From Squalus acanthias (lineage: Eukaryota): a DNA stretch of 64,000 nt. The first letter of the stretch is position 1. Every line of letters starts with the position of its first letter. The notes below the pieces were generated by a model. The model was not told where the DNA came from, did no database searches, and saw only the letters and a program-made list of their open reading frames with translations. Shown piece after piece: positions 1 through 58,800 of this stretch. A program made the translations under genes and the position numbers. Where the stretch lies: the NCBI GenBank assembly GCA_030390025.1, contig CM059427.1, forward strand, positions 57,598,001 to 57,662,000. Direction: 5' to 3'.

Positions 1-2594
1 GAGACAAGACTTTCGAGTTGGATAATACTAGCGTGGAGCTTAAGGGAGACCGGCAACTTCATGTTCCCCCTACCTCTTGATGTTCTTATATACAACAATT
101 AAAGGTGGCCTTCTCCAAGGAGTGAAAAGCTTGTAATTTTTAAGTCCTTTCCAGTTCATTTGCAATATGCTGCATCCCATCACGCAAGCAGAAAAGTAAT
201 CCTTGGATATCGTAAGATGAAGGAGCATACGCACAGTTGCAGATATATTCTATCCCTGGCTGTCAGCAAGTGACTATCATGTAGCTAGGTTGTTTTACAA
301 GGATTTTGTATGTCAAGATGTTTAAGATGCGAGTGCACTAAAGGTTTCAATTGCAAGTTTCAGACTGAATGTGCGCCCTACTGGTGTATAAGTACATGTA
401 ATAAGCCACTGATAGGAAAGAATTGTAAGGTTGAGAGAGGCTTGGCATGGACCAGTACTAAATGTGAAACACGTCAACAGGTAATACTTTGTGCCATGCA
501 CATTTGAGCCATCTACCTGGTAAATGGTAAATAGTATAACCCTGGCAGCTTCCTTAAAAAGTGTGCCAGCTTCTTCTATTCTGTTCCTAGAACCTACTGT
601 ACACAGTGCGGATTCTAGCTGTCACCACTTGCCTGGTATGCTATATTGCTATCCTTTGAGGACAGTACTCAAGAATGCCAAAATCCTTCTTGCACCCACT
701 TCATAGGAGCAGCACCTGTAGCTCACCAGTCATGACAGGGTTCACTTCACCACTTGCTCACAGACTCCGTTTTCTACCTCTACATTTCTTTAGTTTGCCA
801 CTTCATTCCTGTCTGGAAAGGATGAAAAATGAAGTTGTTGCAGCCTTAGGAAAGAGTTAAACCATTTGTGGCACCACATGCAGCCAAATGCGTTCTGCAA
901 CCCTTTAAGTACTGATGATATGCCAATTAACTGCCTCTCCCAAACCACTTAGGTGAGCTCCTGTTAGCAGGCTGAATCTGGGCCAGGATTTTGTCATGCA
1001 TAGATAATTAGGCCTGACCCCACAAAAATCAGCGAGGTCAGCACAGTGCTGTTCTGGTGAGGACAAATCTTCCTTCGTAAACCGTGTGAAATTCTAAGCA
1101 TTCAATCATTTTCACCTAACTTTTCACTCAAAATTTCCATCAATGTACGCATCATGAAAAAAATTGGCATTAAGTATTTGCAAACGCTGGTCATGATTTC
1201 CTGAAACAGGTAGCTAATGAAATTTCCCCTCATTAATCATATACTACTAATTCTTTTTTGAAGCAATAAAATAACAAATAAATACAACGTATGCAAAACA
1301 GAGCTCATACCACTACTCTTCATAATGAATTCAGAAGCTGCTGTGGCAATTAGTGAAACAGTCTCATGACTAAAAAAGAAACGCAAAATAAAACTCTAAC
1401 CTATCAGATACCTAGCAACATCCACGAGTTTAATCTGATTGCAGTTTCACTCTACAAAATGTTAAACAACTGTATTGCCAAGTCAGTGGGCAGACACATG
1501 TGACAAAAATATTTCATGACAGGAAATCATTATTAAACCTGGTGGTTTTCTGGTATTTCTGTTGTGGAAATTTCTCTGTAATTTTTTCAAGGTTTGTGCC
1601 ATGTGTTCTCTCTTAATCAAACTTTGTTCTGCCACAGCAAAATTTTCAAAGTTTAAAGAAGTCCCTACCTGTTGAACTGAAAAATTCTTTAAAATGTACG
1701 TGCACAGGTTCCGGGGATGAGGTCAGTCGTTCTATAAAAGCACCACAAAAAACTGTCCTCAAAACCATAACCACAGCATTTCGCTAGAGATTTTTTAGCA
1801 TTGTACCTGGAAACTCAGCCTGTGTTGGGCACTAACTTGTGCTCAATTTTTGCTGATGATGACTTCAAATTAGTTATCTGACAAAACACACTTTGAAACC
1901 TATTCAATCATTTTTTTTTTTTTTAAATTGAGCCAAAAATACACTTGCTATGGGCAAGGGTAACAGTAAGAGCACGGTACTGTGACTGCAGGGATTTTCC
2001 CCTCCCACACAACGCTGTTAGTCACCTCATTTTAAAAAGTTTCGTAATCGGTAATACAAACTAAAACTGCTTAAGTAATTGTTCTGGATGAAGCATCTTT
2101 CAAATGTTTCAATATTCGATGTAGAGTCCTCCCCAGAAACACAGGAAATGGGGGAGGGGGAAAAGGAAAGCATGAGCAATGATTTCTACGCGTGGATTTG
2201 GGGGAATGTTAGTACCCACTGTAGGTATGATCTCTTAATTCTTTGGAAGATGTTCAAAGTCCACGTACAAATAGAATGTAGTCATCATCTTGAGTGGGAA
2301 AATCGCATGGATCTCTGTTTCTTCAAGAGTTAAGTGGCCAAATGATCTTACCCACTTTGCTGTATATGACTCCGCATTCTGCGGTTTGCCCTTAGTTTGC
2401 CTAGTAGGGAAGCATTAAGTAATAGTAAGAGCGCTGAAACATAAACAGTAAAATGGCTCCAAGTATCACCAGGTCAGAAAAAGAAATTATGGCAAAGCTG
2501 GGAATGAGCTTGGTAGGTGTAAGTTAAACTTTTTTCAAAGAATGAGGAAGACCAGATCTTAAGTAAGTATTCCAACATTAATCCTTATTCATTT

Positions 2595-3042
2595 GGCTCA
2601 GCTTGGTTCAATTGATAACACACTCAGCTCGGAGTCTGAACGTTACAAGTCCAAACTCCACTCTCGGCCTTGGACACATGATATAGGCTGACTCTTTAGT
2701 ACAGTACTGAAGGAGTGCTATATTGTTGGAGGTGCTACTTTTTGAAGGAGACATTAAACCGGATCTCTATCTGCCTGTTCATATGGATGTAAAAGATCCC
2801 ATGGTACTATTCGAAGAGCAGAGAGTTCCCTTGGAGTCCTACTAGGTATTGTTCCAACATCCAACACCATTTGAAATAGATTAACTGATCATCCATCTCA
2901 TTTACTGTTTGTGGAACTTTATTTAGTTGCCACGTTTACCAACATAACAGTGGCTGCACTTCAAGAGCAATATATTATATGTAAAGCATTTGGGACATCC
3001 TGAGACATGATCAGCTGCTATATATATGCAAGTTCTTTCTTT
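2595..3042 (+). mobile_element. DeuSINE (SacSINE1/AmnSINE1-like): tRNA-like head, Deu domain, L2-like tail
   Basis: Deu-type core ...ggatgtaaaagatcccatggtactattcgaagagcag... and tail ctatatatatgcaagttctttctt. Homologous to copies at 39635 and 50005. Confidence 0.75.
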
Positions 3043-3197
3043 TATTTAACATCCAACATAAATAGAAGCATACTAATGTAGTATAAAAATTGGCAGTGGG
3101 TTGGTTCAGAGGTCCTACACCTTCAAGAGCAGCATACTGCTCCTGGTTTATGCTTTGTAAGTGACTCTGACAGGCCTTTCTTAGGTTGTCTAAGAAG

Positions 3198-3477
3198 TAG
3201 GGTTGCCAACCCTCCAGGATTGACTCGAGTCTCCAGGAATTATAAATGAGTCTCCTGCACACATGCTGCGAGCAACCCAGGGAGAAAAAAAAAAGTCGTA
3301 AGGGCATTAAAAGAAGTATGTTTTTCATTTTCTTTGAACATTTTCGCTTATTAGTTATAAAAAATATTGGCAATGCGGGGGGGAAAAAAAGGCTGTTTGT
3401 CCGGACTGACTAGTTGGAGATGGGAGGTCATGTGACAAAATCTCCAGGTATACATCCAACCAGAGTTGGCAACCCTA
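3198..3477. mobile_element. Non-autonomous hAT-type MITE (280 bp)
   Basis: Perfect 13-bp TIR TAGGGTTGCCAAC / GTTGGCAACCCTA. The 8-bp flanks CTAAGAAG and CTTAGACG (6/8 identical) fit a decayed TSD. Confidence 0.8.
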
Positions 3478-4784
3478 CTTAGACGTGACCACTGCATGAG
3501 TAGAGAGTTCAAACCTTCCCTATCACAAGCAGATGCACTCCATTACCCAATTTGAAACTTTGTATTTTGTAATGGATTTTATCATGGTGTTGTTCCCAAA
3601 GAGAGAACTGTAGCAAATGACGTAGGCCGAAAGGCATGCCTCTTACTTACTCCTTGGGATAATTGGCCTATCCTTCATACAAACAAACAAAAAATGACTG
3701 CACACATATCTTGATTGTGAATATAATTTTTAGAGTACTTTTTTTTTTAGGGGCAGGCCTTGCTAAACTCCAACATCAGGACTTCAGAAAAGCTTTAAGA
3801 AGGAAAGCTTTTACCTTCTGTTGCCACTGCCATTATGGCCACGAAATGGTCTGTGCATTCCCACATAGCAAGACAGGAAAGGGAAGCTTTATCATTAACC
3901 TGATAATGCCAGGTCAGCGGACAGGAAGAGAGGGTTGTACTGAGAAACACATTTGCTTATGCAACGAAGTTTTATTTATTATATTTGGTATAAATTAGAT
4001 ATAGATTAGATATAGATCCAGATAACTGAAAAACTGCTGCTGAAATGACTGCTTGCAAGCCCGCCAATCCAGTCATATTTATTGCTTTGCTTCAATTGCT
4101 TTAGGATGGTTTAACCTGCAAAAATATTCTTGCCACAAGTAGTGCAGACCTGTCTGCAGCATGTGGCGGATGGATCGTGTGTGATTTTAATTTTTCCACA
4201 AAGTGTGCATGCTCGTATGGGAAGCTCTTCTTTCTGCAAACATAATCGGTTCTCCAGTATTCCCAATGACTCCATAGCTACCCAGCATGCGGCAACATTA
4301 TAGCTCAAGTGTGCGGAAATCCAATCCGTTGTCGGAAATATCTGCCCACTACGGGAGGCGCTAAGTTTAAACAGTAAAAGCCTGCTGCACTCCAGCGAAT
4401 TAACAGCAGCTACAACAAACAATAAAAAGCAAACTGGGGGAAAAAAAAAGTAAAATCTCTCGAAAGGCTGATGACACAAATCACCAGCACAAACCAACCT
4501 GGCACTCAGAGCCAGCAAGCAGAGCGCTGCATCACTGAAACTTGAAGTGGAGCATTCCACTGGCACCTCCGGCTCTGTTTTGCCAATAAAATAAATTTCT
4601 TAAAGAAACTATTCATAAGCATTTTTAACAAGCCATAATGAAAAAAAAATAACACCCATGGTACAAAACAGACACACCACTTGGCCTCGGTTCTTCACAA
4701 AAACATACCACCGCCCCCCATCGTGTATCCTCTATAAACGTTTTACAGCACTGCAGCATGACTTTATAAGGGAGAGATGTACTT

Positions 4785-20834: not shown

Positions 20835-22678
20835 TAAAAACAGAAAATGCTGTAAATACTCAGCAGGTCAGGCAGCATCTGTTGAGAAACAGCACAATGG
20901 GCTGAATTTTCCGGGGTGATAGCGGGCGAGATCGGTGGCGGGTCGGGTGGGAAAGTTGTTATTTTTGACAGCGGGTCGGGAACCCGCTGTTATCTCGCTC
21001 CCACGCACCTTTCCCCCAGGGGTGTCTGTCATCATGGAGCCGACCTGACCAGCAGCAGCGGGGGACCCAATTGAAATCATTATAAGGTAGTTTACAGACA
21101 ATTATTCCCCCTACTTTTTAAATTTCCCTGCATGGCCACGGGATTCACGCAGCTTGGGAAGCACGTCTGTCAACCTGAGGCGTGAGTTCCGCGGCCATTG
21201 CTCCTGCTGATTACTTGACAGCATGGAAAACAAACCAAAATAAAAACATGTTGATTACATCAGCTAACAGATTGATGGAGATTCTGTTCTACATGAAAAG
21301 CTACTGGTAAATGTTAATTCAGAAATTCCTGAAGGGATGCAAGTACTACCCTGGATGGTGAGGGAAATACATTTTTCACTGGCCATTCTCGGTGGTTGCC
21401 TTCCAACTTAACAGTAATTGCAGTGAATTGGTCTGCACTATAAAAAGTGACATATACCATTTAAATAAATGTGTGTGTTGTTTCTGGTCAGGTTTTTCTC
21501 AACGTATGCTGTGATTGTCCAGTTACACATTAAGTCAAGTCGTCAACTGTAAATTTCATTCTCATCACTCATTCCACTGGTTCAATTTGCTTTCAGTCCC
21601 TGAATATGACTAATTTAATTTTTCAGTCTGAGACTTTAGGGTGAATTTCTGCAGAGGTTCCCTCATTTGTCCATTGTTAACTTCAACGGAAGAGCTGCAG
21701 AAATCCCAAAAACACATTGTAAGCACCACTTACACTGTTTGTCAGGGATTCCGCAGCTCTTTCACTGAACTTGCATAAGATAGTAAATCCACCTCTTTAC
21801 AATTACATTTAAAATCTGCTTAATTTTATGTATTACCTATACACATACATATTTTATGTGTACCAGTTACTGATACAAAAGTCTATAGATTTATGACTAA
21901 AGCACCAATAACTTCCCAATTAATGTACTTTTTTAATTATGTTCTTGATCGTATTTGTAGATGGCATCATATTACTTAATGATATTATTTAAATATTTCT
22001 TTGACACTCATATATAACTTTTATTATATTATTGTACAGTAAAGATTCAACACCCACTATGTTAGATTAAACTTAAAATTTAATGTGGCCATTGTCCCTT
22101 TATTAATCCCGGCTTAAAACACATCATGAATGACATCACCAGACCCATTCCATCTAATTGGGCCGGGTAACGTACTGGGCGGGCTTAATAGGTCCATTAA
22201 GGAGAGTTCATTTTCTACAGCAGGATGGAGCCAGCAGCGGGGTTGCGACCCGCCACGGGCACCGGCAGCACTGGAGCCGCTAAGGTAAGGAAAATTCCAG
22301 CCAACGTTTCAGGTCAATGACCTTTTGTCAGAACTGAAAGATGTTAGAGATGCAACAGGTTTTTGACCAGTGCAGAGGCAGAGAAATTGGGTGGGGGGTG
22401 GAAAGAGGAGAGGAAAGAACAAAAGGAAAGGTCTGTGATAGGGTGGAAGGTAGGAGTGATGAAATGACAAAAGGGAATATAGTGCAAGGCAAAAAGGGGT
22501 AGTAAAGGGACAAGTAAAGAAACAAAAGATGGGTCTGGAAGAGGTGTAAATGGCAGCAGCAGAACCATTACTAGCACCTGCTGTCCGAAAAAATGGGAGC
22601 AGTGGGTATGATCTGAAATTGTTGAACTCAATGTTGAGTCCGGAAGGCTATGAAGTACCTAATCAAAAGATGAGGTCC
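20835..22678 (-). mobile_element. Penelope-like element 3' end (parts 22303-22678 and 20835-20898) split by an insertion
   Basis: Minus strand encodes LIF*LGTS*PSGLNIEFNNFRS (C-terminus typical of PLE GIY-YIG ORFs), then a pyrimidine-rich UTR and cagttCTGACAAaaggtcattgacctGAAACgtt. It resumes after the insertion as ...cagatgctgcctgacctgctgag. Confidence 0.75.
20899..22302. mobile_element. Non-autonomous TIR element (PIF/Harbinger-like), ~1.4 kb
   Basis: Termini GGGCTGAATTTTCC and GGAAAATTCCAGCC, GC/CpG-rich ends and an AT-rich interior. It interrupts the Penelope-like unit. The superfamily is inferred only from TIR style. Confidence 0.65.
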
Positions 22679-23532
22679 TCCAATTAAATATTGAGAAGAC
22701 CAAAGCCATTGTTTTCGGTCCCCGCCACAAACTCCGTTCCCTAGCCACTGACTCTATCCCTCTCCCTAACATTTGTCTGAGGCTGAACCACACTGTTCGC
22801 AACCTTGGTGTCATATTTGACCCTGAAATGAGCTTCCAACCACATATCCGCAGCATAACTAAGACCGTTTATTTCCACCTCCGTAACATCGCCCGTCTCC
22901 GCCCTTGCCTCAGCTCATCCACTGCTGAAACCCTCATCCATGCCTTTGTTATCTCTAGACTTGACTATTCCAATGCATTCCTGGCTGGCCTCCCACATTC
23001 TACCCTACATAAACTTGGTCATCCAATACTCGGCTGCCCGTGTCCTAACTCGCACCAAGTCCCGTTCACCCATCAGCCCTGTGCTCGCTGACCTACAATG
23101 GCTCCCGGTTAAGTAACACCTCGATTTCAAAATTCTCATTTTGTTTTCAAATCGCTCCATGGCCTCACCCCTCCCTATCTCTGTAATCACCTCCAACCCC
23201 ACAACAGCCCCCACCCCCGAGATATCTGCGCTCCTCTAATTCTGCCCTCTTGAACATCCCTGATTATAATCGCTCAACCATTGGTGGCCGTGCCTTCTGT
23301 TGCCTAGACCCTAAGCTCTGGAATTCCCTCCCTAAACATCTCCGCCTCCCTTTCCTCCTTTAAGACGGTCCTTAAAACCTAGTTCTTTGACCAAGCTTTT
23401 GGTTATCTGCCCTAATTTCTCCTTATATGGCTCGGTGTCAAATTTTTTTTGTCTTATAATACTCCTGTGAAGCGCCTTGGGACATTTTACTACATTAAAG
23501 GCACTATATAAATAAAAGTTGTTGTTGTTGTT
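22679..23532 (+). mobile_element. L2 LINE 3' portion
   Basis: Encodes LNIEKTKAIVFG...VRNLGVIFD...YFHLRNIARLRP...LIHAFVISRLDYSNA and ends ataaataaaa(gtt)n. Confidence 0.92.
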
Positions 23533-23659
23533 CCTTGAGTTCCTGTAGAGATTCATTAGAACAGAGTAGGAGGCTGAGGACAGAGATCTCAGAGTGGAAG
23601 TGGGACAGTTCACTTCCCATTTTAATTCTCCGTCCCACTTCCACTCTGACCCCTCTGTG

Positions 23660-29010: not shown

Positions 29011-31672
29011 AAGATAGCAAGATAAATCAATAATTCTGTTGAGAAAGATTGACCAGATGATGCCCACCCACTTCAAGGATTCCAAACTCCCTTCAGTTAC
29101 AAAACTCAGTTCTCAGTTTGCTAACTGAATCTGATCCATGCTTGGACAAAACAAGTGGCAAAGATTGGTGGAAAATAGACAGAAACCACAAAAAATCCCC
29201 AAATCCCTATTTGTCACAGATAACAGCTTCAATATTTGACAAAGCCTGCATCTTCCCGATCACGCTTCAGGAAGAACAGTTCAAAGCCATGTGGACCACT
29301 AGCGTTCATAAGAAAGGTCAACGGTTTGCTAGAATCCATCCTTTTCAATAGCAGTTCTGTGTCAGTTAGCCCACTCCACACCTTCAGTGGAAGTGGGTGC
29401 ATGAAGCCCACATATACGGTTCCACGAAAATTGCTTCTAATCAGTACTTGAGTGCTAAACCTGCAGGTGTCTGTTTTAGCACCTCCAGGCAAGTTCAAAT
29501 TATGATCAGCAATTAGGCCCAAAACTGCGTGCTAAAACCAGACTTTCAAACAGGCGTGTCTTATTAGCAGAGCACCCCTTTTCACCAAAATAACCCCCCC
29601 AAATCTCAACCTTGGAATTTTCCTACGGCTGTGAAGCAGGAGATTCACATCCAGCTGGTGTGAGCAGCCAATGAGAATATCCTGACAGTTTCTGAAGAAA
29701 AGGACAACTCGCACATCGGGTGTATGATTTAATGCCACCCGCACATGAAATAAATACTAGCAGCCCTCATTGTAAACCCTGGGAGATCACATTCAGTGTG
29801 GGACATCCTGTGGTGAACTAAATGCCATCTGAGCAGAGCCTGTAATACAAATGGGGTATTAATGTCTCAGCCTGATAAAAGTTACACCACAAAAGGTTGA
29901 CCTCTTGCTTTTTATTCTGCTAAAACTGCTGCACCATCAGACTACTTCACCATTCAATGCCTCCTCCCTCTCACTATTAGAAGTTTCTCCACCCCCCCCC
30001 CCATTTTTGAGTGACAGCCAACAGCAGTTATCCCACCAGTAACAGCACCCCCAAATATAAAAGGGTCATCCTTAAGTCTGCTGTAACCTGAATAATTTTG
30101 CAATACTGAGAAGGGAAATCCTTCAGCACAGGAGTCGGAACGTCAGCCTACAGTCCTGCGGAGGTTGGGGAGGGGGGGGAATAAAGAAAGAGAATGTAAG
30201 TGAGAAAGAAAGGAGCGGGTAGGAGGACAACAAATGGACAAGTCTGATGTGCAGCTAGGAAGACTGGTGCAATCATTGATTGACAGGGCTTTCACTTAAA
30301 AGTTGTACTCATGGTCCAGAGTTTCCCCATAATATACTGGCCTATTAACTAGGCCAGGTACAGCATAGCCAAATGCAGAGTAAAATTCTGCCCACTCTGT
30401 CAACAATTGCCTTAATCCCAACTTCAACTGCTGCACTGCTGTATCCTTTTTCTATTTTCCACACCAATCATCCTTGTGGGCTTTGAGTAAAATAGTACTG
30501 ACAAGTTGTGACAAATTGTGGACAGATTTGCATTATGCTCCCATGCCAACTAGAAATCAGGTTAGAATTTCTCAAGCTCATGCCATGCAAAACATACAAG
30601 AGTCAGCAGAGGCATTCATCAAATCAATCCATCGTAGATTCTAGTCCAAGTTCCAAAAGTGAAAGTACAGATGCTGAACCCACTGCAATATGAAGTATCT
30701 CACCTTCATACTGCAACAGGTTAACAACCACCCTTTCAATTCTGGAACCTGCTTGGTAGTGCAGATGGGAGGTACTATAGCACAATGTCTCTTGTGGGTC
30801 CATACATCAGCACGCAATAGCATTAGGGACATTGAGAAAAATAACACACAAGCATATAACTCACAGTAACTTTCAAGAACTCATTTGTCATACAAGTTCA
30901 ACCAATACTCATTTTTTGTCTGAATGGATGGAAACTCTAATTCAAACTCGTCTCTTGTAGATTTCAATCAGCCCATAATCTCACTGCCAATATAAAGCAG
31001 GTTTCAAGATGAGCAAAACTACCATATTCAACCAAGATATGTTTTGGGCATAATAATTAGCAGAGTACCAGCAGGAAAGGCTTTATTTTTACTGCCTTTA
31101 AATCTAGTTTAAAAATGGTAACTCAATTTCACGGTCAAATATCCTGCCCAACTTTCCAACCACATCAGGAAAGTTCCACAGTACCCTACATTAAGTGCTG
31201 TGTGTGATTGACACTGGCTATAAAACTGTGTGGTCAACATTTATGCTGAAGCAAACAGACATTAGGCACATAGCCTACTCTGCTTAAGTGGATGGCTGAT
31301 TACCTGCAAGTAGGCTGTTACTGAAAGTGTATTTTTTTTTTAAGAGCCAAATTCCCCATTCACTTCAATGGAAACCTTTTGAAGGTAATTTTCTCTTAAA
31401 GAACGAAACTCCAACTATTGAGCCACTGAGCATTTATTTATAAATGTATCCGATATGAATTCTTCCAAAATGTCTACATATCAAAATTTAAAGGCTCCTG
31501 TCTGTAGAAACCTGCTAGCCTTCCATTTACTAAATACTAAAAGCTTGCTACTAGGGTATTCCATCAGCTTTTAGTGGAAAGTATTTCTACCCCACCCCCC
31601 CACACAGTCTTCATAATGTTTATTAAATACAAGCAGAACTCCCAGTGTTGCTCAAGGTGAGTCAGATAATAT

Positions 31673-31831
31673 AAAAGCAAGATGCTGGAAATCTGAAATA
31701 AAAACAAAGTGCTGGAAATACTCAGCGGGCCAGCCAGCATCTGTGGAGAGAGAAACAGAGTTAACGTTTCAGATGGATGACCTTTCGTCAGATGCTGCCT
31801 GACCTGCTGAGCTTTTCCAGCACTTGCTGTT
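31673..31831. mobile_element. 159-bp Penelope-derived foldback retroelement with a 15-bp TSD
   Basis: Direct repeat TGAGTCAGATAATAT at 31658-31672 and 31832-31846, with ~40-bp imperfect inverted arms. Homologous to 20835/22303, 52105-52240 and 55680-55862. Confidence 0.85.
31759..31791 (-). ncRNA. Minimal hammerhead ribozyme-like motif (probably damaged)
   Basis: CUGACGA-a-AGGU-caucc-AUCU-GAAA-CG-UU-AACU. Core boxes and stem II are present, and stem III is palindromic ACGU. The 5' strand of stem I is lost in this copy. Confidence 0.6.
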
Positions 31832-34119
31832 TGAGTCAGATAATATGCTGCTTTATACCAAGAAGGTCGACATGAACTTTACTCGAATAAAGCTTTTGAA
31901 ACCTGTCCTCTAGATTTTCTTCAAATTATCAAATTCAAACTTTTAATAGAGGCCGAGGCCTTTAAGTAAAAACATTAATGAAGGTAATCAAAAGATAGCT
32001 TTATAAAGTTTAAATTGCGTTACTGTGAAATATTTAACTTCTGTATGCCTTATGTTAAGAAACCTAATTTTGAACATTAGAAATTCCAGTAACAATGACG
32101 AGACCATTTCTTTTTCTCTTCAATAAAATGGGATGGCAAACGCGTGATGTACAGGAAGTTAAGTGCTATATGCAAGACTTTTAATAAATTATAGGTTGAT
32201 AATGAAAATTGGTACAGACTAATTAACCAAAGGGAGGAAAGCGAAAGCTTGCAACTGGTCCAAAGCTACTAACACAAGTTATCCCAGACCGCAAATACAT
32301 CCCTTAAAAAGTCTCAACTGCAGGAAGTTCACTTCACTATTGGAATAACAGAGCTCTTTGGAGGAGCTAATAACTTAGATTTATATATAGGCTTTTCTGC
32401 AGGATTGTGTATGTGCATGCAAGGTCAATTTTGATCCTTGTATTTACTAGACTATTTAAAAACCTAGAATTCCCTTCCCTTTTAATATCTTTTGAAGTCC
32501 TTACCCACCTTTACAGCACTGTAACACATCAACTACCACAGCATAGTCAATATATTTTGACTATCACACTCTAAATTCTTCAAGTGTTCTAAAACACATT
32601 GCTAAATAATTTTAATAGTTTATATTTATTCTTCATAAAACCACTGCTGATTGCAAGTTTTGGGACTTTTTTGAAAGTTTCTCTTCCACAGAAAATGAGT
32701 TACGCTTAAATGTTTTAAAATTAAGTGAGTTTTCACTGGTTTAAAATCCTCCTGGCAGTTGCTGAGACAAAGGAAGTAGTGATGCATTAATGAGTCAACT
32801 ATCCTTACTGTTATCCACAATGACCAAGGGTAACAGGACATCTGTCATCTTGCTTCAGACTTCCAATCAGCCATCAACTCAATACAGTATTTTTGGGCAG
32901 CCAGCAGGGGATTGTCTGCTGAAAATACACTCTTGGGAAGGAGGAGGCCAGTTCAGTCGACAGGCCGAATGGCAAATACCTGAATGGGGAAGAAGTCAGG
33001 GGGACAGTCCTCCCACCTCCTGGGAACACATGGAGAAAAAGGATAAAGAGACACATGTAAAGTCTGAGTCCCCAGTTAGGTCAGACAAGGGAGCTCAGCC
33101 TAGCAACTTACCATCTTAAGCTCAGGGTCAGTCAGAACCAGAAAACTCACCAGGGAAAGCTAAGTTAGCCCACTAACGTGGGATACTGTAGTGTAGTTTA
33201 TTATTTTTTTAATTTCACAAGGAGGGGTTTGAAGTGAAATGAATTTTGATTGAAACTGTCCCTCTGTACATTCGCTTGCTTTCTGTAAAATAAATCAGCT
33301 TAAGGGTTCGTTTCTGGCCTAGTCTCACTAAAGTGTTTTCAATCCACCTATTGAAAGGTTGAAGTGCATGTGATGGCACGTGGGAAGGACAATATCCAAT
33401 TTATTTCACAGGGGGGGGTACTACTGATACAACTGTATGATTAGATATTGGACAGTGCAGCAAACTCCTGAATGTAAGAAGCAGATAGCACTTACGGGAA
33501 GAACCAACACTGAGAATAACTAAATAAATTCATAACACTGTTATTGTGGTAACTTACTGATGCACTTCACAGCGGCTCACTGTGAAAAGCAGTACAAGAG
33601 CCTGGATTCATCAGGTGATGCATAAGAAATAAAAAGCATCTTGTACAACCCAAGACCCAAACTCCAGGCAAGCAAAAGGGGAGTAAATATTAACTTTGCT
33701 TTGCTCGACCGTCTCCACTGAAGTTGCAAGCTGCAGTTCACAGATAGCTCCCTGTACACCACAAAGTACCACCACCCTGCATTGCTATCAGTGTTTGACG
33801 TCACAATTACGTGCTTTTGTCTGAGCACATCATCCAGTACAAATCCTAGCCTATAAAAATATACTCATTTTACTGATCTGGATACCATAAAACAAATGCA
33901 TGAGCAATTAAACCTGCACATCATGTTCTTCTTGATATTGCAACACAGTAATAACACTGAAAGACATCTAAACTCTTTCATCTGTGCACGCTTTTTCTGC
34001 AAACCACGTCTTCCACACAAGTTCCTTTTGCCAGGCGTATGCTCCAGTTTGAGTAGACTTTCCCAGCATAATTAAAAGCCCAGCCCATCTCATTTTTGCA
34101 CTGTGTGGTGATCAGTAGT

Positions 34120-51185: not shown

Positions 51186-52104
51186 GTGCTGGGCTAAGAT
51201 TTTATGTGGCCAAATCTAGCATTGCTACACCATCCCAGCTCAGACCTGCCAAGTCTGTACAGACCATGTATTGAAGTTTGAATTTTCCTGGTCAGGCTGG
51301 CTTAGTGACGCATCAGACATTGTAACTATACTGAATTTTTTGTAATCATGAGCTTTATAACAAATAAATACTTGGCTAATGTGATGTACCATACATATCA
51401 CAAGCAATATTTTTAAGTCAAATAGCTACCCATATTTGTTCCATCATTCCTTAAGAACCTTTCCTTCCCTTTTGCTGCATGTATTATGCCATTACAGGAG
51501 GCTATATTTACAATAATTCAGTATAAATTCCTATTTGATTTCTTGGCTCTAATGACAGCACCAACTCTAACCCCAGTGTTGTGCATTCCAGACAGGCACT
51601 AGCCCTCTGCTGTAATTATGATTTTGTAATGTAATCATATGGAATGATAAATGTATATATTATATAGACACACACACAGCCTATGCTGGAAATTTTAAAG
51701 ATCAAAAGGTCCCTACTGGAAGACTAAGCCCAGTGTTATACTGGGTTTAAAATAGACAGATGATTAGTCAGTCATAAGACTTAGCAGATCCGTCAGCATT
51801 TGCTTATAACAATTTAAAGTGTTACTTCAGGGGGCATTCTAATTCAAAAGACTCAAGAGCACCATCAAGAACTTGCATTTATATATCACCTTTCATGACC
51901 TTAGGACATCCCAAAGCACTTTACAACCAAAGGAAGTACAGCAAATAACACTGACCTATAATATTAAATACAGCGGAATCCACTTATACGGAATTGGTCA
52001 AGATAAGAACAATAGATCTGTATATAAAAAAGCTACCAATACCACTGATTACTATTAGAGAAAAGAAGCAAACTAACAACTAGAGAGAAAAAGCAAAAAA
52101 CTAG

Positions 52105-52240
52105 ATTTCTGGAATCTGAATAAAAACAGCAAACGTTGGAAACAGTTCTGACGAAGAGGCTACAACATAAACATTCCCTCCTGTTTTCTCCACAGATGCT
52201 GATCGATCGGCTGAGGATTTCCAGTAATTTTTGTGTTTGT
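52105..52240 (+). mobile_element. Decayed Penelope-derived foldback unit
   Basis: cagttCTGACGAag...ctgttttctccacagatgctg...ctgaggatttccag. Confidence 0.65.
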
Positions 52241-53729: not shown

Positions 53730-55679
53730 GTTTTGCAGCAGAAAAGCGCTCTTCAATGCCAGCTGCTCATTCTGTCAGATTTGAATGCACCGAGTTAAAC
53801 GTCTTCCTCCGCGCTCCGGGATTGCTGTTAAGTCTTGACAATCAGAGTGTGGAAAGGAACCGCTATCTGTTGGCGGCTGCATTTAAAAAAAACAATGTCA
53901 TGACGACAAAACAAAAAAGAATAGGAGAAAAAAATGTGCAACAGAAAAATGAAATTGTCCTGATTCCATCTGTTGAACACAGTGAATTTGCTCTCTAGGG
54001 CACAGCATAAGCTGTATAGTGTTGCACAATTGTAGCTGCATCCAAAACGGGTTTCTTCTTCTGTTGTGCATTTTACGTATTTTCTTGTATTTTTAAATTT
54101 GGCGTGAGTGGGTGTGTATGCACTACATAAATCTTAAGTTCTTTCAGGATTTCTCAAAAGATAACCAGTTCCAGGTTGATCCCCTTTGCCTCCATTTACT
54201 TCTAAAAGCAACCAACATTTTCCTATTCGGTCCAAAGAACTGACATCCCAAAATAACGCTGCCAACTTGGTTCTCCACCAGCTAATGGTAAAACCATAGT
54301 GCACGCTAAACCTGTGAAAAGGTCAAATGTCAGTGCAGTTTGATATATTTGGGTCTCATATTATGTTAAATTGATGCAGATAGTTTGCATTAGGTCTGCT
54401 TCTTTACTGTGGTGGTATTATTAGCATAGTAAACTCTTTAAGTCATTGCCAGGAACAGACCACACCCTAAGTCAATTGAGAGAATGTGAAAGTGAGTGCT
54501 GGAAATAGAGCCCAATGAAACGTACTGCTGGATATAAAATGCCTGCCTTTACTCCATTTTATTTTATAGGCAAAATAACTTTATTCATGTTGTTTTATTG
54601 TTTATTTGACATAAGTTTGAGATTCCTGTTTATGAATAGGTTTGAAGATCATCAACTAGATTTCTGACCTTTTGTCCTCACAGTTTCCAATGTTGGGAGT
54701 CCTGTAAAAAGTTTATCCCACAATCTCCTGGGGATGGAGCTATCCTTTTTAGCATTTGACGTATTAACCTCTCATCATGACATTTCTAGGATCATTCTAA
54801 ATAATTTGTGTGGGTCGCTGGCTAATTATGTGTAAATATGTGTTACTATATTAACATTGACATTTTGGGTTCCAAGTCCCGGTAAATTTGAAGCCAGTAA
54901 TGGTGGTGAAGTCCTGACGTCAGAAGTTGCTTGGCTTATTTTCCAACTCTTTTATGCACAACTACCTTTAGAAAAGAGCCTACAGTTTATCTGACCCTTT
55001 TGAGGTTTACTGGTTTTCAGAAGCAGTTGTACAACATAGATAAGTACACGTGTTAAATAAATACTGTTGGCACTCACTAAACCCCCAAGAACACAAGTCA
55101 AACTATTGCATTGGTCCTAGTTAACACCTAAAACAGTCTTTAGCATTGTAAGCATGTAGAAAGGATTTGGGGACGAACCAAATCTTAGAATACTCCACTG
55201 TATAATAAATAGGTGAGCTGTCTTTTTTAAAACAGCTCTTTTAAAGTGGAATGGTACAGAATTGGTACATAATATCCATTATAAGCAACACTTTCTTTGG
55301 AAAGAATTTTGGGTTTCAAATTCTTCATTGGAATAATTCTGTAATTAATTGTAGGATAACAGATGCCTGGGATTCAAGGTACCATTCAATTGAGCAGTTC
55401 TGATGATGTCAACTATGACAGCAACATGCAAGCTGGTCACCAAAAACAGAACCCCAAAATCGAACTATGAGCTTAATCTCACTACCAGCTATTTGCTATT
55501 CTTTATAAGAGTCCTTTCTTACTGTAGAGTAGTGGGCCCAGTAGGGCACATTAAAAGTGATACAGATGTGGGAACTGAAGGTATTTGTCATCCTGTAATT
55601 GGTACTACAACATATTTCTGTAGCAGAAAACATGAAATGTCCTGAATACATGAAAAGAAAGTCCACAAAAGTAAAAACA

Positions 55680-55862
55680 CAATATAAAAACAGAAAATGC
55701 TGGAAGTACACAACAGATCAAACAGCACCCAAAAGAAATTTTGTTTTAATGTTTCAGATGAGCTACTTCCTCAGAACTTATGATATCCTCACAAGGAGTC
55801 CCTCCTGAAGTGTTTTTTCTTTTTCAGATGCTGCCTGACCTGCTGTGCATATCCAGCATTTA
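55680..55862. mobile_element. Decayed Penelope-derived foldback unit
   Basis: aaaaacagaaaatgctggaagtac ... cagatgctgcctgacctgctgtgcatatccagcattt. Confidence 0.65.
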
Positions 55863-58800
55863 CTACAGAAAAATAACCTGAAAACCATATATAACTAATC
55901 ATTTGTGCCTTGGGTACCAATGATAGTTAGGAAGAGTGCATTATTAATGATTAAATAAAGCATTTTCAAATCTGTACCATTCCACTTTAAAAGAATTACC
56001 ATTTTAAAAACAGTTCCGTTAGTTGTGTACTGTAGGTACACCATTGAATCAATATGATTTAATGCTAGTATCAAATTAATACTGTTACGGGTCTATTGAA
56101 CAATCACATTTTCATCAATGCTGGTCTGATATTCCTGTGCCAAGGCCATTTATGATATGGATGTCCATGTATATAAATTTAAATTTTTGTTACTTGCAGT
56201 TCAGGCCAGTTTAGATACACGGCAAGAGCGCACTTTTAAAAGAGGAAAGCTCTCTGACAACAAAAACTGCATGTGGAGTTTTTAATAAACTTTAAATTAT
56301 CCTGTTTATTGTTCGAATCTCATGACTTAAACAGTATATTGTCTTTTTGTTCACTTGGAGAATTTAAGAATGTTTTCCCACATTCTCCAAGTTTTTTTAA
56401 AAACATACTTTAATAATGCTTTCTTTTACTGTGTTGTGCATTAATGTTAAACTATTTATGTGTCATGCAAATTATAATATCAATAAATTAGTGTCAAAGC
56501 AGTTGGAACTGTAACACAGCACTTTTCTCCTCAAGGAAGTCACTCTCAAAGGAAATTATACATTCGATTAAACTGAAGTGACCCTGTTTATAACTTGTCT
56601 TGTGTGGTTTAACAGTATTTAGTCAGTGTTGTGCATATTAATTGTGCTTTATTGATTACAGCCGAATGCATCCGGCATATGTTCTAGAAATTGTTTACAG
56701 CTTGTACAATATTCCCTCAGTTGAATGTGATGTACAAAGTAACTGTAGTGTAACTTGCTGAGGAGTTACTAAACTGCATTCATATCATATTCAGATCACA
56801 AGTTGAAACATCATTCTCATCACACCATCATTTGATCAATGCATGTTTTGTAATAATTTACTCAAGTAAACTTTTGTGTCCCTCATTCTTCAAATTCTCT
56901 GAATGACAATCTTCCTCATCCCATTCAGTGCAGATCAATTCTACACTAACATTTCTGTTCCAGTTGCATACACATCATTAGACCCACTGTAAAATGCATT
57001 TAACTTTTGTGACGTGACCATGTGTTAGGACCTAAGATTGAAATTCTAATTTCAGTAAGAATCCCATTAATTTTGGTAGCAACGCAGCTGATGGTAACAG
57101 CAACTACAGATGCTGTTGTGCTTTTACAGCAGAAGAAAACAAATTTATTTAGTATTAGCTTTTGTATTGCTTTATTGAATTTTTTAAAAGAAGCAATCTG
57201 AAGCATAACTACAATCCAAATCATGAACTATGTTTCTTGAAAAAGTAATGTGGACTGTTTAAATTGTATAGACTTCATGGCTTGAATGTTAAATGTAGTT
57301 CAATCATTTGTTGAAACCGAATAAATCACTGCTGGTCCATTGTAAAATTTGTTCAAAACGTTGATTTTATGCCGTTACCATACGCACAGCTGTGTCAAGA
57401 CTTCTTTAAAATTTGATGGAACAAGGCGACATGTCTTCGTTGTCTTTTATTAGATCACTATTTATAAACCCTGCCTTTGCTGCATTCTTGTTTAATGTGT
57501 TAATGACAGCATTCATGGGCTTTCTTCAGAAATGTTCACTCACACGTCCACACAGAATCCAATCGACTCTTGAAATCTTACTTCTATTTTTATCACTTTA
57601 CAAACCTTGCTATCCGTGTCCTGATGACAAACATGCTGAAGTATGAAAATAAATAACATCTCCTTATACATGTTAGAACAGAGTACGGAACAACTGCTAA
57701 ACCATTTTGAGATTGTTAATGTTTTATCTGTTTCGTGATTTCCCACTGTTGGATGGGGAATTCAACTTATCTTTTTAGAGTGATCCAGAGGGGGTCATTT
57801 AATGTAATATTTTATATTATAGTGAATATAGGTAGTAACAAGAAGAAATCTGCTGTTGTATTAAGGGTCAGGCTGGGGGGGAAAATCAATTGATCTACTT
57901 TTTCCTCTCCTTAGAGAGATTATAATATTATTATTCTCAAGGATTCTTGTGTGCTTATTCTTACAACCAAGCGTTATTTTAAAATCAATCGATCGTAAAA
58001 CAAATTACAGAACAAAATGAAAAAAAACTTACATGGCAAAGGGTTTAAAAGCTTCACTTTATACTGTTTTATGTGCACTTTGACTGAAACATGTGTGTTT
58101 TACTTCTGTCTTTTTTTAATGCTTTCCCATCGCTATTGATGTTCAGTGAAAATATTACCAAAATGCTTGGGGCATTCTCCAACAGACATATAATGATCCT
58201 TACTATTTTTATTCTTGCAATTATGTCCAAGCTATTTCACAGATCTTCAGAGAACACCTTTAACAACAGTCCTGTTCAAATTGCTGTGCAAATTCAAATC
58301 TGTCAATATATTATTCTGCAGTAAAGCATTAAGGTACTGTATTTTATCACCCTTTAATACGGCAATCAAGTATAACAAAAATGACTTGTAAAAATGCTGC
58401 AGGGAAAATATTTCTGAATATTTACTTTGACTCTATTTTCCTAATGTCACGAGAAATGCATCATCATCCCTATACGGTGTCAAATCTGGTCTAGCAAAGA
58501 ACCTGCTACTGCTGCCTTGGAGCAACTGAGGACTCTGAATGTTCAAAGTAATGCGTTAAAAATCACTAATGATGGTTTAAGGATGGGTCCTCGCAGGTTT
58601 TTCATATGATAGGGCGACTGGTAAAATCTACCTCTTATAATTTGAACAAATTGCCTGGCTAATACCAAAGTCCCAAATGCTGCTTTCCATAGTGCACTGC
58701 AGCTTTAACTAAGTAAAGTTGGATGTGAGATCGAAACTACTTTTGTTGCTTTCTCTATGAATTCAAGGCATTTCTTCAGACGTTACCATTAATCTAGAGA

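Follow-up and report, generated by a model that had tools for sequence, protein, structure and literature searches.

A truncated and inverted Penelope-like insertion with a broken hammerhead ribozyme downstream of ZEB2 in Squalus acanthias

The stretch of DNA analysed here (the window) comprises 64,000 nucleotides of the Squalus acanthias genome (assembly GCA_030390025.1, contig CM059427.1, positions 57,598,001 to 57,662,000 of the forward strand) and carries at 31658-31846 a tiny insertion which is a single, very short, doubly 5'-truncated and inverted copy of a Neptune-like Penelope-like element (PLE). As stated in a preliminary description of this DNA, a 159 bp foldback unit (31673-31831) is flanked by a perfect target-site duplication (TSD), the 15-mers at 31658-31672 and 31832-31846 being identical at 15/15 positions and holding the AP-1 consensus heptamer TGAGTCA. 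The inverted arms enclose the core of a hammerhead ribozyme, and on the minus strand the unit reads as a 43-nucleotide inverted arm, the CUGACGA box, stem II, GAAACGUU, a repeat of about 65 nucleotides that includes the partner of the arm, and a tail. In the numbering used here position 0 is the C of the CUGA box and the predicted cut falls between +28 and +29. The body (31673-31792, minus strand) corresponds to the pseudo-long terminal repeat (pLTR) of the element from -1 to the outer 3' end and equals the family reference at 116 of 123 aligned letters; with the other 7 of 123 letters changed and two deletions, this copy has drifted. The body ends in the PLE tail (31673-31695, minus strand), the part past the putative inner start of reverse transcription, which aligns from reference +98 onward and has a 9-nucleotide deletion. 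The arm (31789-31831, plus strand; 43 nucleotides) covers the pLTR from +48 to about +92 and finds its partner sequence in the body; the two arms are therefore unequal, the tail being present on the body and absent from the arm. Arm end (+48) and body start (-1) meet at an inversion junction on a 4-nucleotide microhomology (31789-31792). The box, stem II and GAAACGUU occupy 31791-31763 of the minus strand, within a hammerhead remnant (31759-31791, minus strand) in which the core boxes are intact and the predicted cut lies between 31763 and 31762. The whole unit folds into a stable hairpin at -67.7 kcal/mol (z -6.65; 0 of 200 shuffles equally stable).

Judged by its sequence, the family motif qualifies as a bona fide hammerhead, minimal and type I, like those described for PLEs (PMC4209133; review PMC6765202). 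The CUGANGA and GAAA boxes are kept, stems I and II covary across two families and stem III is palindromic, while the composite ribozyme previously pieced together from several copies equals the majority letters of 93 exact-core copies. Across 11 hand-picked copies of the two families 96% of the cells are paired, 7 of 9 pairs are changed on both sides and slid controls collapse; this covariation represents few independent events, and the search required pairing of stem II but not of stem I. The second family, which emerged from a structure-based scan of the fetched loci, differs in stem I, in stem II and in the palindrome of stem III; there is also a minor subfamily, with 424 matches, whose closing pair is G-C. 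The second PLE-type family has a fully covarying hammerhead, two 3' ends of its own about 37 nucleotides apart and its own head-to-head foldbacks (L148:1143-1151, L145, L230, L237), the first of which lies about 8.9 kb upstream of the window. The copy in the window is damaged, as had been recognised. At the inversion junction stem I lost its 5' strand to the joined sequence, so that of its 4 pairs only 1 Watson-Crick pair and 1 G-U are left, and stem II contains a C-C mismatch and a newly formed G-U. The CUGA core box is predicted to be paired into the long hairpin, and with the missing stem I strand, the stem II mismatch and the buried core this copy is predicted to be inactive. For an intact natural copy folding predicts an alternative structure at -9.1 kcal/mol against -5.9 kcal/mol for the hammerhead fold. 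An Rfam scan of the window gave no hammerhead among 13 matches at E<=10.

The proposed abundance of the family and its Penelope origin both stand. The 3.7-Gb genome contains 22,360 exact copies of the 32-nucleotide hammerhead core, and in one fetched long copy the same hammerhead lies about 275 bp past the stop codon of an 878-codon open reading frame (ORF; P0001, 878 aa) with matches to reverse transcriptase (RT) and GIY-YIG endonuclease (EN). Both profile matches are weak (RVT_1 E 2.6e-5; GIY-YIG E 5.1e-4) and below the Pfam cut-offs. P0001 contains a cysteine pair inside the GIY-YIG core and a C-x4-C-x2-C linker motif upstream of the GIY-YIG motif. A CX2-5CxxC motif in the RT-EN linker is a mark of Neptune which is common to Nematis too (PMC8557442), and it is this linker motif, rather than an RT tree, that points to the Neptune clade for the parent element. 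Like other EN+ PLEs, the family has a single ORF with RT plus a GIY-YIG domain at its C-terminus, a pLTR with a hammerhead, partial tandems with 762 tail-to-ORF junctions, and insertion units that combine an inverted truncated pLTR, a one-sided tail and a TSD. From 30 sampled tail-to-ORF loci 27 could be placed, and 21 of the 27 extend back through the ribozyme. The long copy is laid out in the same way as the window unit, with 14-bp direct repeats, a short tailed inverted arm and a 3.1-kb body. Among 98 arms taken from the first 100 places of one pattern listing, the 3' ends fall into two groups, near +97 (54) and near +133 (44), which match the PLE tail of 30-40 bp (Craig 2021) and the two RT starts seen in vitro (PMC11167929). 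Some PLE ends (L094, L095, L102; G000 C1, about 6.99-7.13 Mb) lie inside tandem units of about 1.7 kb and have been amplified along with them. RNA contigs of several runs link the 5' part of the ORF to the 3' region (L181:1662-4511, 2478-4445), which suggests internally deleted derivatives, and tail-to-ORF tandems only 260-390 bp apart may be retrozyme-like.

The preliminary description also counted four related units in the window. Related copies are indeed present, but they represent three other insertions, two of the pieces being one split copy. This copy (20835-22680, minus strand) comprises the ORF C-terminus, the 3' untranslated region and the pLTR; the suggested link to a Penelope ORF is borne out by a tblastn match at 22609-22680. 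Its two parts, 20835-20892 and 22303-22680, contain pieces equivalent to reference -55..+29 and +33..+95 and are separated by an insertion of about 1.4 kb (20893-22302) just past the cleavage triplet. The intervening DNA is GC-rich with loosely inverted ends and is probably an old DNA transposon or miniature inverted-repeat transposable element (MITE). The other two insertions are older mini-foldbacks of the same family, one at 52089-52238 (plus strand; tailed arm, body start -5, 75/95 and 46/54 identical) and one at 55674-55864 (minus strand; body start -4, 79/102 and 43/49 identical).

The exact junction of the window unit occurs in 30 copies genome-wide, or 0.13% of the core copies. A search that tolerates 0-30 nucleotides at the junction gives 236 matches and a wide variety of joints, the window junction accounting for 10 of the first 100 listed (by eye), and 29 of the 98 arms are fused to a second short arm. 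The question of whether copies share one inversion junction or differ is thus answered by a continuum of joints in which that of the window is one of many. By extrapolation tiny foldbacks of all sizes are common and number thousands; a search with the unit itself returned many look-alikes, but such a search selects for them. The 30 exact-junction copies carry the tail on the arm (18), on the body (11), on neither (1) or on both (0). Their arm majority letters equal the body majority letters throughout and the ordinary pLTR letters at all 52 columns, and at the two core positions that vary both letters are present. The number of derived letters common to the arm and the body of one copy is 8, compared with a mean of 1.6 and a maximum of 6 in 2000 shuffles.

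These observations bear on the proposal, made in the preliminary description, that the unit belongs to a non-autonomous foldback family, which may be pictured as MITE- or retrozyme-like and mobilised whole by the PLE protein. Such a family would account for a junction that recurs exactly 30 times and for related units of similar size. However, the junction is confined to that 0.13% of core copies, the layouts are reciprocal, the ends vary and the arm letters are those of the ordinary pLTR, and a related junction occurs in a second subfamily, both arms of which carry letters specific to that subfamily (L017, L019, L020). The combination of shared ends, shared junction and private variants that would mark a MITE-like family is not seen among the exact-junction copies. 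Rarity, the continuum of joints, the two reciprocal tail layouts and the lack of arm-private variants therefore do not support a clonal foldback family, which is considered highly improbable. The recurrence of the junction can be explained by a stop hotspot (see below) together with the fact that only two 4-nucleotide microhomologies link arm ends of +15..+59 to body starts of -8..+2, this junction being one of them. Many of these stubs may have a short pLTR-only RNA as their template.

The unit was probably built during its insertion by twin priming, with two pLTR pieces joined head to head within the 15-bp TSD, and stubs of this kind are likely to be assembled anew at every insertion out of two DNA copies with separate priming. 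According to this scheme the GIY-YIG endonuclease would nick both strands about 15 bp apart and each nick would prime reverse transcription on the element RNA, with an outer start at +133 that gives rise to the tail and an inner start at about +97. For the window unit the outer cDNA would have extended as far as the hammerhead's 5' edge, where stops are frequent, and the inner cDNA would have extended for about 45 nucleotides; the complementary cDNA 3' ends would then anneal over 4 nucleotides and repair would seal the insert. L1 twin priming produces an inverted piece, a TSD and junction microhomology, and its two pieces are successive parts of the RNA. Unlike these, the pieces described here overlap and start at two fixed internal sites. 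The distribution of tails agrees with paired starts, as among 72 two-armed units 68 have one tail, 4 have none and 0 have two (in the similarity set, 2 of 30 loci are without core and 2 without arm). For 53 pattern-selected informative units (the 30 exact-junction copies plus 28 others, minus 5 with the body cut short), 0 two-tailed units compare with 10.7 expected from independent starts (P 7e-6). A TSD of 13-18 nucleotides is found in 40 of 74 units with a mode of 15, which is also the length in the window. For an Anolis element, the only one for which both strands are shown to be nicked and extended, two RT starts defining a tail and a predicted dimer are also described (PMC11167929), and inverted truncated copies with a tail of 30-40 bp on one end have been published for PLEs (Craig 2021; PMC3846280).

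An alternative route is snap-back self-priming, where one cDNA reaches the ribozyme 5' edge, folds on the 4-nucleotide microhomology and copies itself into the arm. It accounts for the microhomology, for the identity of arm and body and for the layout of the window copy, and self-priming at palindromic junctions has been proposed for PLEs (PMC3846280). It cannot, however, yield the 18 of 30 copies with the tail on the arm, in which the body cDNA has no tail and the arm cDNA no ribozyme, and many junctions have no overlap or contain extra bases; as a general explanation it is unlikely. Several points nevertheless weigh against twin priming, the individual steps of which we infer from end patterns in genomic sequence. 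Snap-back priming could itself have given rise to the window copy, in which the tail is on the body, and gene conversion within the hairpin could be the source of the letters shared by arm and body. A simple TSD finder detects no TSD of >=13 nucleotides in 34 of the 74 units. Sampling took the first places on one contig and called for exact motif matches, which biases the samples towards young copies; in addition, 28 of the 74 units were picked up because they resemble the window unit and are biased towards its layout.

The stop at the ribozyme 5' edge is a hotspot. Of the 98 arms 21 end at -5..+1, which is equivalent to 4.7% per nucleotide versus 0.58% elsewhere (8.1-fold, p 3e-11, for an interval picked after seeing the data). 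There is no excess of ends at the ribozyme cut site, where only 2 of 98 fall within +27..+31 (0.45% per nucleotide), and the idea that arms end at the cleavage position is rejected. Genome-wide, 1,254, 1,848 and 1,456 copies have a match ending at -2, -3 and -4, respectively, and 26/30, 27/30 and 23/30 of the loci sampled at these positions are true junctions and not point changes; at least 1,175 copies end at -5 and at least 720 at -6. The peak is thus broad (-2 to -6) with no cliff, and a sharp single start at -4 is not supported. A length limit of the RT is rejected, with tailed (12/32) and tail-less (10/40) arms stopping at the same place. All three foldbacks of the window begin their bodies in the hotspot, at -1, -5 and -4, and in the second family 9 of 24 copies have their end no more than about 12 nucleotides from the core (by eye). 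By contrast with the terminal copies, where 31 of 107 stop at the edge, only 1 of 21 ORF-upstream pLTRs that reach the ribozyme does so (Fisher p 0.025), in a small sample from one subfamily.

A possible explanation for this behaviour, with close to an even chance of being correct, is a short linear template whose 5' end lies near stem I. Somewhat less probable, though still a serious candidate, is that synthesis fails at an early stage, when the ribozyme region is still bound by the enzyme. A plain structural block is weakly disfavoured by the ORF-upstream comparison (p 0.025). A cap-derived extra G was considered and is not supported, being present in 1 of 26 TSD-bearing ends. The pLTR contains at about -20 to -3 a branch-point-like motif and a pyrimidine tract followed by an AG that ends at stem I, and the intron of D. 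virilis Penelope likewise ends at stem I (PMC4209133). No spliced form was seen: no shared short first exon joined to the AG at -4/-3 was apparent upstream in 90 loci (by eye), no splice ends occur among the 15 joints viewed of 49 in RNA contigs, and the second family has no AG at -4/-3. Public RNA data comprise 24 runs, all as contigs; the four runs compared with the element cover it, and contigs of this kind reveal neither strand, start nor level of its transcripts. A broader and rather doubtful proposal invokes two RNA templates. A linear transcript, begun at an initiator-like site near -4 in the opening bases of the hammerhead and primed at the 5' pLTR that it carries, would give the stubs and hairpins of about 100-140 nucleotides that make up roughly a quarter of the copies, in the manner of a pLTR RNA resembling a short interspersed element, whereas circular or multimeric RNA would give the long and partial-tandem copies. 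A dimeric enzyme would prime both strands 36 nucleotides apart and leave one tail per insertion. Circular or multimeric RNA has no end at the hotspot.

The inverted pLTR with a one-sided tail and a TSD, as well as dispersed minimal hammerheads from truncated PLEs, are already published. EN+ PLE insertion units (bioRxiv 2021.04.23.441226 / PMC8557442; PMC3846280) share with the window unit the head-to-head truncated pLTR, the one-sided tail of 30-40 nucleotides, the TSD and microhomology at the junctions, but in the window both halves are cut within the pLTR and no ORF is left, and the TSD is about 15 bp compared with 8-10 bp in rotifer copies. The PLE hammerheads of PMC4209133 are likewise type I, with 4 bp in stem I, a single unpaired base ahead of stem II and palindromic 15.2-16.2, and include thousands of dispersed single motifs from truncated copies. 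They differ in that stem II here has 5 bp, that the 10.1-11.1 pair is A-U, G-U or G-C, and that the window copy has no stem I; cartilaginous fish are not among the hosts named in the available text of that study. The PAc Poseidon element of Anolis (Frangieh et al. 2024, PMC11167929), studied in vitro, resembles the family as interpreted here in that its tail is set by two RT starts located downstream of the hammerhead, that both strands are nicked and extended, and that nothing points to cleaved RNA as the template. The available text of that paper reports no end hotspot at the ribozyme edge. PAc Poseidon belongs to a different clade and its ORF starts in stem II, whereas the ORF here appears to start past the tail. 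Non-LTR retrozymes (bioRxiv 10.64898/2026.07.22.740005), reported in one chondrichthyan too, are likewise non-coding, PLE-derived and equipped with a type I hammerhead. They are, however, head-to-tail tandems with an intact ribozyme per unit, and the window contains one head-to-head unit with a broken ribozyme, without the tandem arrangement or complete hammerheads of a retrozyme. The literature found on shark PLE hammerheads, PLE twin priming and ribozyme truncation (subscription papers, supplements and Repbase/Dfam being outside its scope) reports neither the stop hotspot nor tail counts.

The last exons of ZEB2 lie near the end of the window at about 62.3 and 63.5 kb (62286 and 63506, minus strand), so that most of the window is downstream of ZEB2 and the insertion is located about 30 kb 3' of the gene. 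A neighbouring large zinc-finger/homeodomain exon just beyond the window (L147:1116-3215) matches the ZEB2 homeodomain structure 2da7 (E 5e-32). Hairpins at 23579-23659 and 30643-30754 give weak Rfam matches to microRNA families, and the former lies in a rearranged PLE ORF remnant. The vicinity of ZEB2 and the duplication of an AP-1 heptamer by the TSD could speak for a retained regulatory or ribozyme element, and microhomology-mediated deletions reported in PLE copies (PMC3846280) for a product of later events in which two long inverted copies collapsed by deletion. Against such post-insertion origins, non-inverted simple stubs stop at the same place directly against the TSD, which indicates that the stop arises at insertion, and the broken ribozyme and drifted sequence argue against a retained element. 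The TGAGTCA heptamer is indeed part of the TSD as described, but there is no evidence of a role for it: the window holds 9 such sites, the chance of an AP-1 heptamer in a 15-mer is about 0.1%, and TSD-flanked copies number thousands. Either form of this explanation is very improbable, and the window copy is likely to be inert debris.

The insertion is hence for the most part an ordinary miniature PLE copy with a broken ribozyme and of modest mechanistic value, and as one of thousands of dead stubs the locus itself matters little. For repeat annotators it offers a caution that such hairpins are not to be labelled MITEs or microRNA precursors. Taken together, the stubs form a natural archive of the PLE transposition cycle and offer a test of how these elements jump, in the form of three testable numbers: the units never have two tails, both tail layouts occur at one junction, and the stop lies at the ribozyme 5' edge and not at the cut site. 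The role of the hammerhead in PLEs has been called unclear (Craig 2021), and it is dispensable in vitro (PMC11167929). The end statistics bear on this role and on the origin of the inverted ends of PLEs, and the two-template reading, if true, would be evidence from the genome both for the circle model of PLE hammerheads and for twin priming as an obligate step.

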